Positions 2,172 through 51,430 of a stretch of DNA of 64,000 bases are shown here, piece after piece. Source of the stretch: an uncultured Actinomycetes bacterium (GTDB lineage Bacteria; Actinomycetota; Thermoleophilia; UBA2241); assembly GCA_963725665.1 (NCBI GenBank), contig CAVRZA010000002.1, positions 224,001-288,000 on the forward strand, given 5' to 3'. The notes beneath the pieces were generated by a model that did no database searches, was not told where the DNA came from, and was given only the letters and a program-made list of their open reading frames with translations. The position numbers and the translations under genes are program-made. Within the stretch, counting starts at the first letter, position 1. Each line of letters starts with the position of its first letter.

Positions 2172-2738
2172 CTACTTATGCGCCTCCAAGATCTCGCCGC
2201 CGATGCACATCCTGGCCCAGTCCTCATCAACGTTGCTCAGGTCCATGGCGGCGGCCACGTTCATGAGCATGCCCTGCGCGAGCCACTCCCTGACGTCGTA
2301 GTCGGCGGCGCCCGAGGCGCCTTGCACGAAGCGCACCAGGCGCAGGAACTCCTCGCGCACCGCCTCGCGCACGTCCTCGTCGCCGCAGGCGGCGTAGGCC
2401 TGCATCTGCATGAGCAGGAGATTTCTGTCTGCGAGCAGACGGTGGTAGGCCAAGCCCATGGCGATCAGGACGGTCTTCATGTCGGCGTCCTCGCCGGCCT
2501 CGGCCGCCGCGGTGCGGAAGGTGGCCACGGTGCGCTCGAAGGCCCGCCGGACGGCGGCGATGAAGAGGTCCTTCTTGGTGCCGAAGAGCTGGAACAGGTA
2601 GGGCTGCGAGACGCCGACCCTCTTTGCGATCGCCTCGACGGGCGTGCCGTAGAGTCCGCCTACGGCGAACTCACGGGTCGCCGCCTCGACGATCTCGCGC
2701 CGGCGCTCTTCCTTGCTCAGTCTCGTCGTTGCCTTCAT
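2172..2738 (-). CDS. TetR/AcrR family transcriptional regulator
   Basis: HTH region IVEAATREFAVGGLYGTPVEAIAKRVGVSQPYLFQLFGTKKDL. Start placed at ATG 2738, 7 nt after a TACAAT -10 (likely leaderless). Confidence 0.92.
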   Translation of the reverse strand: MKATTRLSKEERRREIVEAATREFAVGGLYGTPVEAIAKRVGVSQPYLFQLFGTKKDLFIAAVRRAFERTVATFRTAAAEAGEDADMKTVLIAMGLAYHRLLADRNLLLMQMQAYAACGDEDVREAVREEFLRLVRFVQGASGAADYDVREWLAQGMLMNVAAAMDLSNVDEDWARMCIGGEILEAHK

Positions 2739-2745
2739 GGCAGGC

Positions 2746-2775
2746 ATTGTACCCTAGTTAGCAGTCACTAAACAA
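2746..2775 (-). promoter_or_regulatory. tetR promoter with palindromic operator
   Basis: Minus strand TTGTTT-N18-TACAAT; imperfect palindrome TTAG-CAGTCA-CTAA at 2758-2771 lies within it. Confidence 0.55.
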
Positions 2776-3036
2776 GTGTTTGCGTCAAGGGGGTGCGCCA
2801 AGTGCTTGATCGGTCGCCCCACCGACGGGCGGGACTGGCGTCTGTCAAGGCGATGACCGGATGTCCCGCGCCTGCGGACTGGTCCCGCGGATGTGACCGT
2901 GAACCCTTCGTACACAGACTGTCCATGACACCCACGCAACCTGGTGCTAGGGTCCTCTGCATAAACAGGCGGTCGATGCCGAACACCATCCGCAGCCTGT
3001 CGAATCCTTGTTCGGCATACAGAGGAGGAGTAGGCC

Positions 3037-3245
3037 GTGGCCACCCAGTATGAGTACAAGTCTGTTTCCGGGAAATCAAAGGTGGGTGGCTGACCGGGAG
3101 ACTGAAGCCTGAGTATCGCGAGACAATCACACGGCATGCGCAGGACGGCTGGAGGTTTGTCCAGGCGTTCGCTCCCCCTGTTGGTGGCGTCGGTGAGGCA
3201 GACTACGTTGACCTGATCTTCGAGGGCCCATACGAGGAGTACTGA
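3037..3245 (+). CDS. DUF4177-like small protein (one frameshift); gene cassette 1
   Basis: GAGGAG RBS, then GTG: MATQYEYKSV / (shift) EIKGGWLTGRLKPEYRETITRHAQDGWRFVQAFAPPVGGVGEADYVDLIFEGPYEEY*. YEYK...GWRFV...LIFE is the DUF4177 pattern. Confidence 0.7.
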
Positions 3246-3246
3246 T

Positions 3247-3312
3247 GCCGAACAGGCAGATTGAACTGGCACACGGCTTCGCCGTGCGCAGCTCATCTGC
3301 TCAGCGTTGGGC
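3247..3312 (+). mobile_element. integron attC recombination site (66 bp)
   Basis: Begins GCCGAAC (R'') just after a stop codon and ends GTTGGGC (R', GTTRRRY) just before the next ATG. Internal imperfect palindrome GCAGATTGAACTGGCACACGGC-TTC-GCCGTGCGCAGCTCATCTGC with unpaired bases. Confidence 0.75.
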
Positions 3313-3317
3313 GTACT

Positions 3318-4166
3318 ATGACTGAGTCGACGAACATGCCGGCGGACAAGAGTCTCTTCTTCTACGGGTCGGTCTATCACCGGCTGCTGGACCCGCCGCT
3401 CGCCGAAGCGCGACGCGTTGCTGTCGACCTCGTCGCGGACGGCAGTTCAGTGCTGGATCTCGGCTGCGGCACTGGAGAGCTGTGCTTCGATCTGCTGGAG
3501 AAAAAGCACTGCCGTGTCGTGGGCGTGGATTTGTCGTTGCGGATGCTGGACTTCGCCCGTAAGGCCACCAGGTCCGCAGAGATCGCCTTCCTGCACTTGG
3601 ATGCGACGGACCTTGTGGGGATCGAAGACCATGCGTTCGATGTCGCTACGATTCTTCTTCTGGTTCACGAGCTGCCGATTGAAGAACGCGTGCGAGTCCT
3701 CGGCGAAGCACTTCGTGTGGCCAGAGCAGTCCTGATCATCGATGCAGCGGCCCCGCTGCCTTGGAACGGCGGCGGCATTGGGATTCGGACTGTTGAGTAT
3801 TCGTTCGGCCACGCGCACTATCACCATTTCAGGGACTTCCTTGCGCGAGGGGGCATTGACGGCCTCCTCGCCGAGTACGGTTGCGCCGGGGCGGTGGTGC
3901 GGCGTGAGCTGTTCTGGCGCAACTGCCGGGAGGCCGTGGTCGTTGCAGAGCGGAGGCATGATGACCTGCGCGCCGCCCAACAAGGGTCTCAACCGGACGC
4001 GCCCAAGCGCTCCGAAAGGCTGAAGCCGCAGCCCGCGCAGGGTATCCGCCCGGCGCTGGGTGCAGCTTGCGTCGGATCCTCCTCGGGGGAGTCCGCGTCT
4101 ATTCGATCTCCGCGTGCGAGCTGTCGCAGAACGGGGGATTGCCGGTCAGGCCGCAGTTGCAGATAG
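3318..4166 (+). CDS. class I SAM-dependent methyltransferase; gene cassette 2
   Basis: VLDLGCGTG motif I, VVGVDLS, FLHLDA. The C-terminal ~65 codons read through a degenerate attC and are probably not domain sequence. Confidence 0.85.
   Translation: MTESTNMPADKSLFFYGSVYHRLLDPPLAEARRVAVDLVADGSSVLDLGCGTGELCFDLLEKKHCRVVGVDLSLRMLDFARKATRSAEIAFLHLDATDLVGIEDHAFDVATILLLVHELPIEERVRVLGEALRVARAVLIIDAAAPLPWNGGGIGIRTVEYSFGHAHYHHFRDFLARGGIDGLLAEYGCAGAVVRRELFWRNCREAVVVAERRHDDLRAAQQGSQPDAPKRSERLKPQPAQGIRPALGAACVGSSSGESASIRSPRASCRRTGDCRSGRSCR
3975..4061 (+). mobile_element. degenerate attC site
   Basis: Starts GCCCAAC (exact complement of the GTTGGGC opening this cassette), followed by AAGGGTCTCAACCGGACGCG; ends CGCGCAGGGTAT...GCTGGGT (mutated R'). 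Confidence 0.5.
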
Positions 4167-4343
4167 CTTGTGCGATGGGCTCCTCGATCTTGAACTTGAC
4201 GGGGATGACCCCCGTCCCCGTGTGCGGCCGTCGCAATACGGGACTGTCCGCGTCCTGCCGCAACGGCACCATAAGTAGGTCCTTTTGCCGAGCTCGGTGA
4301 CCAGCGGGTGGCTTGTTGCCTCATCGTTCTCGAACCGCGTCAT
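4099..4343 (-). CDS. CDGSH iron-sulfur domain protein (frameshifted)
   Basis: LWCRCGRTRTVPYCDG, then after a frame change ICNCGLTGNPPFCDSSH: two CDGSH-type motifs. Confidence 0.8.
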
Positions 4344-4463
4344 GGCGGGCTCCTTCCTCCAGGGCTAGGCGGTCAATCATACGGGTGCGTTGTACAACAC
4401 GCACGCCTAAGCACCGCATCGAGCGGACGCCGTCGGCTACACTTGTCCCACCAGGATGAAGGC

Positions 4464-4965
4464 GTGGATACCCAGATCGTCGTCACCGTAGTAGCCGGGC
4501 TCCTGCTGGCCGTCGCTGCGATCGGGACGGTCTACCCGGTGCTACCAGGCAGCCTCCTGGCCATCATCACGCTGATCGCCTGGGCCTGGATCATCGGTTC
4601 ACCCGAGGCGTGGACCGTCGCCGTGATCGGCTCGGTCATCGCCGGGATGGGCTGGTCGGCGAGCGCGGTGCTCACCGGTCGCAAGCTGAGACAACAGCAG
4701 GTCCCCAAGCGCTCCATCGCCGTGGCCGTGGTGTCGGCCGTGGTGGGCATGTTCCTGATCCCGGTGGTCGGTCTGTTCGTCGGCTTCGGCGCCGGGCTGC
4801 TGGCGAGCGAATACGCCCGGCGCCGGGACTTCCGTGCGGCTCTCGATTCAAGTGTGGAGACGTTGAAGGCGACCGGCCTCGGCATCCTGGTGGAGTTCGG
4901 CCTGGTGTGCCTGGCCGCCTCGGTGTGGATGATCGGCGTGATCGTCTCACTTCACGACCCGGTAG
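4464..4965 (+). CDS. DUF456 family membrane protein
   Basis: GTVYPVLPGSLL...VGMFLIPVVGLFVGF pattern; hydrophobic. 3' end uncertain (frameshift near stop). Confidence 0.75.
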
Positions 4966-7417
4966 GCTTGCGCGGCGACCGCCGGGCCGTGGGCTTGTCC
5001 TCCAGCGTCTTGCTCTTCTCGGCCAGCTCGGCCAGCCGGTCGGCGACCATGCGGTTCACCGTGCCCGTCGGGGTAGCGGCCGTCGCCGCCGGGCTCGCCC
5101 GCGGGCAGGCCGGTCAGCACCTCGATCCCCTCGTCGATCGTGGTGATGGGGTAGACGGCGAACTGCCCGGCGGCGACGGCCTCCACCACATCCTGGCGCA
5201 GCATGAGGTGCTTGACGTTGGCCTCGGGGATCAGCACGCCCTGGTCGCCGGTCAGTCCGCGCGCCTTGCACAGGTCGAAGAAGCCCTCGATCTTCTCGTT
5301 GACGCCGCCGATGGCCTGCACCTCGCCGGACTGATTGACCGAACCGGTCACCGCGAACGACTGCGTGATGGGCACGCGCGCGATCGCCGAGAGCAGCGCG
5401 TAGAGCTCGGCGGACGAGGCGCTGTCCCCGTCGACCCCGCCGTAGGACTGCTCGAAGACCAGGCTCGCCCCGAGCGACAGCGGATGCTCCTGGGCGTAGC
5501 GGCCGCGCAGGAAGCCGGACAGGATCAGCACGCCCTTGGAGTGGATCGGCCCGCTCAGCTCCACCTCGCGCTCGATGTCGACCACCTCGTCCTTGCCCAT
5601 GTGGACGGTGGCGCTGATGCGGCTGGCCTGGCCGAAGCTGAAGGTGCCCAGAGAGAGCACCGACAGCCCGTTGATCTGGCCGACCTTGGTCCCCTCGGTG
5701 TCGATGAGTACCGTCTTGCGCAGCACTTCTTCCCGCATGCGCGCGGGCAGGCGGTCCGAACGGTAGATCTGGGCGTCGATCGCCTGCTGCACGTGGGCGA
5801 CGCTGACCAGCTTCGGCGCTTCTCGCGCCGCGCGCGAGTGGTCGGCCTCCTCGAGCAGGTCCACGATGGCCCGCATCTGGGCCGTGACGCGCTCCGAGTC
5901 GCCGACCAGGCGCGACGCGTGCTCGACGACCCGGCAGACGGCGCCGCGGTCGAGCGGCAGCAGCCCCTCGCGCTCGGACGATGGCCGCGATCAGCCGCGC
6001 GTACTGTCGGGTGGTCTCCTCGTCGCGCACGAAGTCGTCGTCGAAGTCGGCCGCGATCTTGAACAGCTCGTTGAAGTCGGGGTCGCTCCTGGGCCAGCAG
6101 GTAGTAGAGCTGGCGGTCGCCCATGAGGATCACCTTGATGTCCAGCGGGATCGGCTCGGGCTCGAGCGAGACGGTGCTGGTGACGCTGAGCATCTGCCCC
6201 GGCGACTCGATGCGGATCTGCTGGAAGCGGAGGGCGCGCTTCAGTCCTTCCCAGGCGTAGGGATTGGAGAGCACCTTGAGCGCGTCCAGGATCAGATAGC
6301 CGCCGTTGGCGCGATGCAGCACACCGGGCTTGATCAGCGTGAAGTCGGTGACCAGCGCGCCCATCATGGAGCATCTGCTCCACGCGGCCCACCAGGTTGA
6401 GATAGGACGGGTTGCTCTCGTAGATGACCGGCGCTCCGGCGGCACCGCTGGAATCGATCAGCACGTTGACCCGATAGCGGCGCAGCGCGGGCGGCTTGCC
6501 CGAGGCGTCGGGGATGGGCAGGTTTGCCGCCGCGCCTTCCTCGGGCTTCTCCTCGCCGGTCTCCAGGAAGTCGCTCAAGTGGTCGCCGACGCTCCTCTGC
6601 ACTGCCGCGAGGTAGGCCGCACACGTCGGGCAGGTCCTTGTACTTGACCAGCAGGTCGTCGACCAGGTCGTTGACCACCACGGCGGTGACCTCGTTGTTC
6701 AGGTCGCGCAGGCGGCTGCCGAACTCACGCTTCCAGCGCGGCACCTGCAGCAGCACCTTCTGCAGCTCCCCCTGCAGCGACTCGATCTCGTCCTCGAGGC
6801 GCTTCTGCTCGTCAGCGGGCAGCTTCTGGAACTCCTCGGGGGAGACGACCTCGCCGTCCTTCATCGGGGCGAACGCGAAGCCGGTCGGCGCCTGCAGCAG
6901 GGCCAGGCCGCGCCCGCTGCGCCTGCTTCTGCAGCTCGGCGAGGCTCTCTTTCTGGCGCTCCTCGAATTCCTCCTCCAGGGTGCGACGGCGCGTCGTGTA
7001 CTCGTCACTCTCGAAGGCGGACGAGAGGCCGGTGCGCAGCTCTTCCACCAGGCGTTCCATGTCGCGTTTCAGTTGCTTGCCCATGCCGGTCGGCAAGCGC
7101 AGGGCGCGCGGTGTGGAGGGCTGTTCGAAGTCGTTGACATAGCACCAGTCGTCCGGGGACGGTTCGTCCGCGGCGCGCTGCTCCACGAAGCGCTGGATGA
7201 CGGTGTACTTGCCCGTGCCGCTGGGTCCGAGCGCGAAGATGTTGTAGCCCTGGCGGTCGATGGTGACACCGAGCTCGATGGCGGCGATGGGGCGGTCCTG
7301 GCCGATGAACTCGATGTCGGTCTTCAGGTCGGCGGTCGTGGCGAAGTCGAGATGGTCCAGAGTGCAGTGTCTGTAGAGGGCTTCGGGCGGCAAGGGTCGT
7401 ACGGAGGCCACGGTCAT
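4947..7417 (-). CDS. Lon-like ATP-dependent protease (AAA + S16 domain), multiply frameshifted
   Basis: Fragments [66 protein letters not shown] and [12 protein letters not shown] lie in several frames. Confidence 0.88.
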
Positions 7418-50089: not shown

Positions 50090-51430
50090 ATGTTCGAGAA
50101 GGTCCTCATCGCCAACCGGGGCGAGATCGCCGTGCGTATCATCCGCGCCTGCCGCGAGCTCGGCATCGCGACCGTCGCCGTGTACTCGGAGGCCGACGCC
50201 GAGTCGCGGCACGTGACCTTCGCCGACGAGGCCGTCTGCATCGGGCCGCCGCCGGCGATCAAGAGCTACCTGCAGATGGATGCGCTCATCACGGCGGCCA
50301 AGACCCACGGCGCGCAGGCGATCCACCCGGGTTACGGCTTCCTGGCCGAAAACGAACGGTTCTCGGCGCTCTGTCGGGAGGAGGGCATCGCGTTCATCGG
50401 CCCTGCGCCCGAGTCGATCGCGCTCATGGGCGACAAGGCGGCGGCGCGGGCGACGATGACGGCCGCCGCCGTGCCAATCACGCCGGGGTCGGACGGCATC
50501 GTCGCCGACGTCGCCGCCGCGGAGCGGGTGGCGGGTGAGATCGGCCTGCCGCTCATGGTTAAGGCGGCCGGCGGCGGCGGCGGCAAGGGCATCCGCATCG
50601 TGCGCGATGCGGATGCCCTTGCCGCCGCCGTGCGCCAGGCGCAGAACGAGGCCGAGGCCGCGTTCGGCAACCCTGCCGTCTACCTGGAGCGCTACATCGA
50701 GGAGCCGCGCCACGTCGAGATCCAGGTGCTCGCCGATGCGCACGGCCACATTGTCCACCTCGGCGAGCGCGACTGCTCGATCCAGCGCCGCCACCAGAAG
50801 CTCATCGAAGAGGCGCCCTCGCCGGCCGTGGATCCGGAGACGCGCGCGGCCATGGGCGCCGCCGCCGTCGAGGCCGCGCGCGCGGCGGGCTACCAGGGCG
50901 CCGGCACCGTCGAGTTCCTCTTCAACGGGGAGGGGCGCTTCTATTTCATGGAGATGAACACGCGCGTGCAGGTCGAGCACCCCGTCACCGAGATGGTGAC
51001 CGGGATCGACATCGTCAAGACGGGCATCGCCATCGCCGCCGGTGAGCCGCTGCCGTTCACGCAGGATGACGTCGTGGTCGAGGGCCATGCCATCGAGTTC
51101 CGCATCAACGCCGAGGATCCCGCCAACAACTTCCTGCCCAGCCCGGGGCTCGTCGACGAGTGGGCTCCTCCCGGCGGCCCCTGGGTACGGATCGACAGCC
51201 ACGTCTACCAGGGCTACACGGTGCCGCAGTTCTACGACAGCTTGCTGGCGAAGCTGATCGTGTGGGGTCGCGACCGCGACGAGGCCATCCGCCGCGGGCG
51301 CTGGGCCCTCGCGCAGTTCAGGGTCGGCGGCGTCAAGACGACCATCCCCTTCCACCAGCATGTCCTCGACCACCCGCTGTTCGTCGCCGGCACCGTCTCG
51401 ACGCACTTCATCGACGATCACTTCGGGTGA
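50090..51430 (+). CDS. accC: biotin carboxylase
   Basis: KVLIANRGEIA, HPGYGFLAEN, GGGGKG, ERDCSIQRRHQK, EMNTRVQVEH, YDSLLAK. Confidence 0.93.
   Translation: MFEKVLIANRGEIAVRIIRACRELGIATVAVYSEADAESRHVTFADEAVCIGPPPAIKSYLQMDALITAAKTHGAQAIHPGYGFLAENERFSALCREEGIAFIGPAPESIALMGDKAAARATMTAAAVPITPGSDGIVADVAAAERVAGEIGLPLMVKAAGGGGGKGIRIVRDADALAAAVRQAQNEAEAAFGNPAVYLERYIEEPRHVEIQVLADAHGHIVHLGERDCSIQRRHQKLIEEAPSPAVDPETRAAMGAAAVEAARAAGYQGAGTVEFLFNGEGRFYFMEMNTRVQVEHPVTEMVTGIDIVKTGIAIAAGEPLPFTQDDVVVEGHAIEFRINAEDPANNFLPSPGLVDEWAPPGGPWVRIDSHVYQGYTVPQFYDSLLAKLIVWGRDRDEAIRRGRWALAQFRVGGVKTTIPFHQHVLDHPLFVAGTVSTHFIDDHFG

Follow-up and report, generated by a model that had tools for sequence, protein, structure and literature searches.

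Clusters of attC sites that lack an integron integrase are known as CALINs (Cury et al. 2016, PMC4889954; Neron et al. 2022, PMC9024848; here and below, statements on published work cover the parts of each text that were available). Two cassettes were held by 1362 of 2961 CALINs in a preprint (Loot et al., 10.1101/2022.09.11.507474), where their origin is discussed either as loss or rearrangement of the integrase gene intI or as insertion of cassettes at genomic attG sites. The attC sites themselves are recognized by RYYYAAC and GTTRRRY boxes with their AAC and GTT triplets, by extrahelical bases of the bottom strand at G16 and T23/24, and by a length of 57-141 nt (Nivina et al. 2016, PMC5027507). 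For complete genomes of Actinobacteria, the available parts of two surveys report no complete integron, one In0 and a few CALINs (PMC4889954, PMC9024848), and in 2026 a "virtual absence" of integrons was stated for Actinomycetota metagenome-assembled genomes (MAGs) of a permafrost site (PMC13323075), whereas a 2021 review lists Actinobacteriota among the phyla with integrons detected (PMC8618304). Here we describe a locus at positions 2913-4061 of a 64-kb window (the whole stretch of DNA analyzed, from contig CAVRZA010000002.1 of assembly GCA_963725665.1), belonging to an uncultured bacterium assigned to Actinomycetota. A previous reading of the sequence (the original prediction) had proposed two tandem integron-type gene cassettes without an integrase, on the premise that this phylum is nearly devoid of integrons; the two surveys and the permafrost study agree with that premise, although the review does list the phylum.

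Results

The attC sites and the organization of the locus

The stretch 2913-4061 is very probably a native integron platform without an integrase, composed of an attI-type docking site, a cassette with a DUF4177 gene and a cassette with a methyltransferase gene, and by now frozen and decaying. Its attC sites were evaluated with a covariance model (R1) that draws on 10 attC sites from four relatives and contains nothing of the source genome (G000 hereafter; other G numbers denote related or phylum-sample genomes, and C1, C4 and C11 are contigs of G000). The hairpin of the R1 alignment comprises 24 pairs, with 89% of cells paired and 8 pairs showing compensatory change; none of 500 shuffles reached the observed score, and slid controls paired at 20-43%. 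In a search of both strands of the window with filters off, for which E-values are rough, the two best matches were located on the plus strand at 3975-4061 (51.4 bits, E 1.9e-12) and at 3247-3312 (31.4 bits, E 1.5e-6). The latter, attC1, coincides base for base with the complete 66-bp attC-like site originally proposed, and the former, attC2, with the site expected downstream from 3975, though it is decayed. The third match, at 50575-50630, is a perfect GC-rich palindrome with 17-nt arms that scored 23 bits on both strands, a false positive that shows the background of R1 in G000. The two sites of the locus belong to the attC family of the relatives.

Between a TetR-family gene and a CDGSH gene, the plus strand carries five features, namely about 290 nt of non-coding DNA, the DUF4177 gene, a 66-nt imperfect palindrome, the methyltransferase gene and an 87-nt element. 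In terms of integron parts and flanks, these are:

2172..2747, minus strand: TetR-family regulator gene of the left flank, chromosomal and divergent (Pfam TetR_N, 44.5 bits)
2913..3016, plus strand: element A, attI-type docking site with a promoter-like motif, homologous to the DNA that follows intI in relatives
3011..3306, plus strand: cassette 1 (296 nt), opening with TTCGGC and closing with the G of the following GTT, bounded by the attI junction and attC1
3037..3245, plus strand: DUF4177 gene, frame-broken (Pfam PF13783, 39.6 bits)
3247..3312, plus strand: attC1 (66 nt; R1 31.4 bits, E 1.5e-6)
3307..4055, plus strand: cassette 2 (749 nt); the complement of the attC2 5' box equals GTTGGGC at 3306-3312 (7/7)
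3318..3961, plus strand: class I S-adenosylmethionine (SAM)-dependent methyltransferase gene (implied end; open reading frame, ORF, as assembled to 4166; Pfam Methyltransf_25, 66 bits)
3975..4061, plus strand: attC2 (87 nt), of the main sequence type in the family, decayed (R1 51.4 bits, E 1.9e-12)
4099..4343, minus strand: CDGSH iron-sulfur gene of the right flank, with a one-base frame break at about 4216-4235 (two zf-CDGSH matches in two different frames)

The two attC sites lie 663 nt apart on the plus strand, and their lengths (66 and 87 nt) are inside the 57-141 nt range of attC sites. Site attC1 reads GCCGAAC-AG-GCAGAT[T]GAACTG[G]...CAGCTCATCTGC-TCAGC-GTTGGGC, with bases 16 and 23 bracketed. 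Its bottom strand (3247-3312) gave a fold of -18 kcal/mol (z -3.2; one shuffle in 200 was equally good), and the alignment to R1 places its bulges at positions 16 and 23. The consensus of the relatives has its bulges in the 5' arm at top-strand C16 and A23 (bottom strand G16 and T23), separated by a 6-bp stem. Both C16 and A23 of the top strand are retained in attC2, of which about 6 of the 24 modelled pairs are broken, as read off the R1 alignment.

When 40 related genomes were searched with the DNA of 2750-4400, matches were limited to about 2913-3016 and about 3971-4060; no synteny was found in these genomes, the attI and attC parts alone being matched. Further copies of the attI and attC2 stretches were found by the same search inside G000. 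Site attC2 was homologous to copies on C1 and C11 and to copies in G001, G007, G012 and G020, the latter spaced at 360-600 nt and having 5' RYYYAAC, 3' GTTRRRY and paired inner arms.

An explanation outside integrons, in which the hairpins would be terminators or chance palindromes and the matching 7-mers a coincidence in a GC-rich genome, draws on the commonness of such 7-mers (16% of unrelated box pairs agree at 7/7) and on the abundance of hairpins in genomes of this kind, the third R1 match being just such a plain palindrome, at 23 bits. It has to contend with an independent model that singles out exactly attC1 and attC2 on the cassette strand, with 31 and 51 bits, with homologous sites in arrays behind intI in relatives, with the bulges at positions 16 and 23, and with a terminator scan that returned nothing at attC1 or attC2. 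By the R1 matches and the intI arrays of relatives, this explanation is effectively refuted.

The docking site and its orphan copies

Element A begins with a left box, CACAGACTGTCC, at 2913-2924, followed by ATGACA (2925-2930) and TGc-TAGGGT (2945-2953); its 3' half contains an inner box GCCGAAC (2978-2984) and CAGCCTGTC (2994-3002), and ends in ...AATCCTTG, where the crossover G^TT falls at 3010/3011. It could be aligned with the stretch of roughly 100 nt directly behind the intI stop codon of G057, G005, G012 and G016, up to a shared end ...AAT..T.G^TT.GG at which similarity stops. The aligned modules have in common GCAGWCTGC boxes, repeated TTACGCAGA-type boxes and a conserved TGnTAnnGT motif, which may represent the extended -10 element of a putative cassette promoter. 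In the relatives, the module lies about 10-500 nt past the intI stop codon and is succeeded by an array of homogeneous attC sites on the same strand. By its sequence, element A thus appears to be an attI-type site, the window copy of which shows the junction property and has no intI beside it.

The original prediction had interpreted 2978-3016 as a shortened attC site, which the data contradict: this stretch scored 9.7 bits under R1 (E 3.7), and because element A aligns to the intI-proximal DNA of relatives, its GCCGAAC...GTTCGGC pair is accounted for as the inner box and the crossover box of attI, the last six bases of the latter being cassette 1. The 10-mer ATGCCGAACA, present in three copies within 280 nt, was likewise considered as a dispersed repeat or operator and discarded, its other 28 genomic copies looking coding by eye; the copies in the locus correspond to the attI inner box, the start of cassette 1 and the 5' box of attC1.

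Two more copies of element A were found in G000, at C11:457758-457861 on the minus strand and at C4:339748-339821 on the plus strand, the latter together with C4:338254-338289. The three copies are alike through ...AATCCTTG, continue as TTCGGC, TTGGGC and TTAGGC, respectively, and are unrelated thereafter. At least 11 attC sites are distributed in G000 over five loci (2 in the window, 3 on C11, 3 on C4, and 2 plus 1 on C1), and attI heads three of the five.

A core pattern of the module, CTGNNNAATNNTNGTTNGG, gave 31 matches in 25 of 89 family genomes, against 2 for a reversed-pattern control. Three of these matches were in G000, 10 directly behind intI, and 18 in neither position. Inspected by eye, about 15 of the 18 orphan copies carry the full module, two are doubtful, and the one on contig C32 of G063 is likely a chance match in coding sequence. 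No remnant of IntI was detected in the approximately 700 nt upstream of the 18, while in 9 of them an attC site (28-88 bits) was located 300-650 nt downstream on the same strand, compared with none upstream (0/18). Moreover, the intI-bearing genomes G057, G078, G079 and G091 carry two attI copies each, with the extra copy far from intI or on another contig.

Several other arrangements of the module were observed. On C4 (338254-339821, locus L019), about 1.46 kb of inserted DNA, whose ends are imperfectly inverted, splits the attI module inside the -10-like motif; the insert resembles an insertion sequence, and the putative cassette promoter would have been disrupted by it. On contig C4 of G024, a genome without IntI, five copies of the promoter-like motif and hairpin half, devoid of the ...AATCCTTG^TT end, precede unrelated genes (loci L010 and L020). 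These half-modules may reflect a reusable promoter and 5' untranslated module from which attI arose, or the reverse. In the printed DNA of two further loci (L028 of G101 and L029 of G023), intI is followed by small paired genes resembling toxin-antitoxin or AbrB/Fic-type modules, with no attI module. Finally, a public contig from run X1 matches the attI module from exactly position 2913 with a different upstream flank, pointing to another copy in that metagenome with the same sharp left boundary.

Cassette junctions, cargo genes and base composition

All core sites were located at the positions predicted (GCCGAAC at 2978-2984 and 3247-3253, GTTCGGC at 3010-3016, GTTGGGC at 3306-3312 and GCCCAAC at 3975-3981), and they pair as expected for insertion by recombination. 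On reverse complementation, the 5' box of attC1 gives the GTTCGGC of 3010-3016 (7/7), and both window junctions are complementary at 7/7, compared with 6/7 and 5/7 between the two boxes within each site. The 7-mers in question occur at 0.07-0.18 per kb in G000 and are weak evidence by themselves. Of the adjacent junctions in G000, 4 of 9 reached 7/7. In the G012 array, both consecutive junctions (2/2) were exact, with rarer boxes, and among four relatives with the first attC in view, the junction between attI and the first cassette was exact in three, whose boxes all differ (5/7 in G012). The signal of cross-complementarity is real but modest evidence on its own, because the boxes of the family resemble each other.

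The DUF4177 gene of cassette 1 is preceded by a strong ribosome-binding site, GAGGAGGA, at 3022-3029. Its frame runs from a GTG start at 3037 to a TGA at 3091-3093, and the remainder is found in another frame that ends in a TGA at 3243-3245, placing the break near 3084-3093; the translation of 3090-3242 (the C-terminal 51 residues) matched PF13783 with 39.6 bits. The methyltransferase ORF of cassette 2 starts with an ATG at 3318 and, as assembled, continues through attC2 to 4166. Its closest homologues, from metagenomes (93% and 88% identity), are 215 residues long and end 5 residues after VVVA, exactly the point after which the window protein departs from them, and in an alternative frame ...AEA precedes two stops (3959-3964) located 11-13 nt ahead of attC2. 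A one-base indel near 3948 is therefore indicated, with the stop at 3959-3961. The two ORFs had been described as tightly packed, and attC1 begins 1 nt past the DUF4177 stop. As assembled, the ORFs are not both intact, given the frame break in the former and the read-through of attC2 in the latter.

A homologue of the methyltransferase was present in none of the 88 family relatives (E<=1e-20), so that it is an accessory gene, and a scenario in which relatives carry both genes in synteny without the sites is removed. More distant homologues include a protein of a Syntrophales-labelled MAG (58% identity). The block was also poorer in guanine plus cytosine (GC) than its surroundings, as first noted, with 0.59-0.62 over 2701-3900 vs. 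0.65-0.74 in most flanking windows.

Base composition, the absence of the methyltransferase from relatives and its 58% homologue in a MAG labelled Syntrophales might be taken to favor an imported block, that is, a fragment, gained through horizontal transfer, of an integron that is mobile (e.g. class 1-type) or comes from a foreign phylum and has no relation to the lineage of the host. Low GC and a patchy distribution are, however, expected of cassette cargo in any integron. Furthermore, attC2 is of the sequence family that fills the arrays of relatives, the docking site is homologous to their intI-proximal DNA, and no transposon or insertion sequence genes flank the block, as judged from the window ORFs and Pfam. 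With attC type and docking site both the family's own, import, one of the two origins originally envisaged, is highly improbable.

The locus is also represented in public data, with 151-nt contigs from four runs of four studies matching pieces of the window exactly. The junction of attI and cassette 1 is bridged by a contig at 2904-3054 and that of attC2 and the right flank by one at 3985-4135, each without differences. Another contig (2976-3126) covers the DUF4177 break with 0 differences, and a contig from a different study (4175-4325) reproduces the CDGSH break exactly. Since at most one run can be the (non-independent) source of the assembly, at least one of these two frame breaks is probably real, unless the runs fed the assembly. 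The indel position near 3948 lies outside the coverage of the matching contigs. Elsewhere in the window, a LonC-type protease gene (4947-7417, minus strand) was found scattered over at least four reading frames.

Integrases in the source genome and its family

IntI was called with TIGR02249 (NCBIfam type "subfamily", integron integrase) at its cut-off of 265 bits. The best match in G000 reached 86 bits, and its two best recombinase loci classify as Xer-type. With the IntI proteins of 12 relatives as tblastn queries, G000 showed no intI remnant at distances of up to 4 kb from its attI copies. The lack of an integrase was thus correctly predicted, and G000 holds no complete integron in the sense of intI beside attI and attC. 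The locus fits the definition of a CALIN, as had been proposed, having at least two clustered attC sites of a validated family on one strand and no integrase nearby.

In the family of G000, IntI exceeded the cut-off in 47 of 89 genomes, mostly at 435-489 bits, and in several of them it was located hundreds of kb into large contigs. The IntI of G012, for example, matched TIGR02249 in one stretch with 478.6 bits and the class 1-type equivalog NF011946 with 368 (cut-off 435). Sites found with R1 (E<=1e-6) were even more widespread (78/89), and most of the 42 genomes without IntI over the cut-off still had attC sites. Counts rose to at least 45 per genome among the 49 candidates scored, values subject to a ceiling effect, and arrays of tens of sites on large contigs lay downstream of intI on the same strand. 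These data bear out the suggestion of an unrecognized integron system in this lineage. The genes as such are already present in databases: JGI gives the label "integron integrase" to close homologues of the IntI of relatives, and a MAG protein at NCBI bears the label Aeromicrobium sp.

If an IntI encoded in the unassembled 2.5% of G000, on a mobile element or on transiently acquired DNA served the orphan attI in trans, the locus would be an active satellite platform and its array would not be frozen. Such an arrangement could explain why the three attI copies of G000 are each followed by 2-3 attC sites, with different first cassettes behind one and the same G^TT junction, why the intI-bearing G057, G078, G079 and G091 hold extra copies, and why 9 of the 18 orphan copies have attC sites 300-650 nt downstream and none upstream. 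It is at odds with the absence of IntI from G000 by both hidden Markov model and tblastn, with the degraded state of the last attC and of the DUF4177 gene in the window, and with the lack of excision or insertion joints in public contigs; besides, the 42 of 89 family genomes that have no IntI over the cut-off and mostly have attC sites fit repeated loss equally well. We therefore regard an active satellite as unlikely, and a frozen native platform remains the preferred reading.

Host phylum and wider distribution of integrases

The assembly of G000 is 97.5% complete, with 12 contigs, 5% contamination and 68% GC, and the 593-kb contig of the window carries rpoB as well. WhiB-like genes mark the phylum Actinomycetota. 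WhiB (PF02467) was present in 44 of 81 genomes sampled from the GTDB phylum of G000 (41/78 once the three unpublished genomes G115, G131 and G159 are removed), and among 14 control genomes Corynebacterium alone was positive. It was not found in G000 nor in 5 of 5 sampled genomes of the same class. Pup ligase, Omp85 and LpxC also gave no match over the profile cut-offs in G000, and from these four absences in G000 alone an exclusion from the actinobacteria was considered at one point, which the phylum-wide WhiB test overturned. Two other markers were set aside, RpoB identity to ten named genomes for its lack of discrimination (60-63% for Actinomycetes and Acidimicrobiales vs. about 61% for a MAG from Chloroflexia) and fumarase for matches of at most 68% identity scattered across many phyla. 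By its GTDB phylum and the occurrence of WhiB in the phylum sample, the host belongs to Actinomycetota, consistent with the apparently actinobacterial nature first ascribed to it.

In a sample of the class, IntI over the cut-off was found in 17 of 121 genomes (14/20 in family f1, 3/20 in f4, 1/20 in f6 and none in other families), and in the phylum sample full-length IntI was found in 7 of 81, from three other families (G122, G124, G136, G152, G157, G164 and G166). IntI is hence concentrated in the family of G000, and integrons are routine there (47/89) but not in the phylum sample. Two of the IntI-bearing families of that sample, f15 and f17, were WhiB-positive in 5 of 5 sampled genomes, and IntI is therefore not confined to the WhiB-less class.

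Discussion

The sites, their membership in the attC family of the relatives, the homology of the docking site and the absence of intI are observations; from them we infer past recombination by IntI, promoter activity and present inactivity. Each cassette would have entered as a circle through the action of an IntI-type tyrosine recombinase, which would join the folded bottom strand of the cassette attC to the double-stranded attI at G^TT. Insertion of a circle at G^TT accounts for the exact complementarity between the 5' box of each attC and the first six bases of the cassette to which that attC belongs. A putative promoter borne by attI would then read into both cassettes. As G000 is without intI, the array would be frozen and decaying, with the DUF4177 frame broken and the GTT of the last attC gone. 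On a larger scale, the element is part of a lineage-specific integron system, in which intI is present in about half of the family genomes and arrays follow it on the same strand in an "inverted-integrase" layout.

A number of results weigh against this reading. At the level of the attC sites, attC1 keeps the geometry of bulges at 16 and 23 with a 6-bp stem but has other bases there (top T16 and G23), and its 5' box GCCGAAC agrees with the consensus at 6 of 7 positions, with G at a Y position, the 3' GTTGGGC being a fit. In attC2, the 5' box GCCCAAC fits, whereas the 3' box GCTGGGT lacks GTT, and a free-energy fold leaves the ends of the site unpaired. An Rfam scan of 2500-4600 returned three chance-level matches only (E 3.8-5.6) and is uninformative for attC. 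As for the junctions, 7/7 complementarity was also reached by 21 of the 134 control pairs formed from non-adjacent sites of G000 (16%), and by just 2 of 7 junctions of the other G000 arrays. No promoter was recognized in 2700-4400 by a sigma-70 consensus scan. The matching public contigs contained no excision or insertion joints; no public run held half of the sampled window words, and these contigs are uninformative on mobility. Given the completeness, contig number and contamination of G000, an unassembled intI is possible. To these points are added the three attI copies without intI, for whose presence the proposed history offers no account.

In place of a single intI-attI platform with one long array, several dispersed attI-plus-promoter copies, each with a short expressed array and all served in trans by one often-lost integrase, would constitute a distributed integron, with the locus as one of its satellite docking sites and not the debris of a deleted integron; we put this forward as a tentative idea, less probable than the contrary. 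More generally, the recurrence of orphan attI copies suggests another route by which small cassette clusters arise and are expressed, and copies without intI are a layout that is invisible to CALIN-type annotation.

The reason for the near-absence of integrons from Actinomycetota has been treated as an open question. Here, about half of the genomes of one family have IntI, attI and attC, and nearly nine tenths have attC sites. Since integrons are common in this family and IntI occurs in WhiB-bearing families, the supposed barrier applies to cultured classes rather than to the whole phylum. The family may also serve as a natural system of the Gram-positive type for host-factor hypotheses. A literature search on integrons with Thermoleophilia or Gaiellales returned resistome surveys only, at the level of titles and abstracts, and neither a paper on "orphan attI" nor a description of repeated attI heads without intI was found. 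A 2026 paper reportedly deals with "delta-attI-type cassettes" in mobile integrons. Prevalence at the family level, the types of attC and attI and the layout with orphan attI copies thus appear to be unreported in searchable papers, in contrast to the IntI genes themselves, which are already in databases.

Compared with canonical attC sites as outlined in the available text of PMC5027507, those of the locus share the boxes, the 6-bp stem that separates the bulges at 16 and 23, and a length within 57-141 nt. They differ in the spacer between the R and L boxes, which is 5-6 nt per arm in canonical sites and here is short and asymmetric (2 nt vs. 5 nt). They differ as well in the bulged bases of the bottom strand, canonically G and T and in attC1 A and C, and in the GCT that replaces GTT in attC2. 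The "inverted-integrase" layout, as far as it is described in the accessible part of PMC13323075, is matched by the intI-attI-same-strand arrays of the relatives, and the sites of the window are of that type; unlike that layout, the window and the whole of G000 have no intI, and the host family belongs to Actinomycetota.

Cassettes inserted at attG sites and single attC sites lacking an integrase (SALINs), in the portion of the preprint consulted (10.1101/2022.09.11.507474), resemble the present locus in that they are not part of a complete integron, follow a resident promoter and have no integrase nearby. Their target is an arbitrary genomic site, whereas the target in the window is a copy of the attI module proper to the family, complete with repeated boxes and the conserved ...AATCCTTG^TT end. 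Among the described systems, the CALIN shares with the locus at least two attC sites in one orientation, ORFs in the cassettes, no nearby intI and a small array. Beyond what the CALIN definition takes into account, the locus retains an attI-type head with a promoter-like motif, one of three such heads in a genome without intI.

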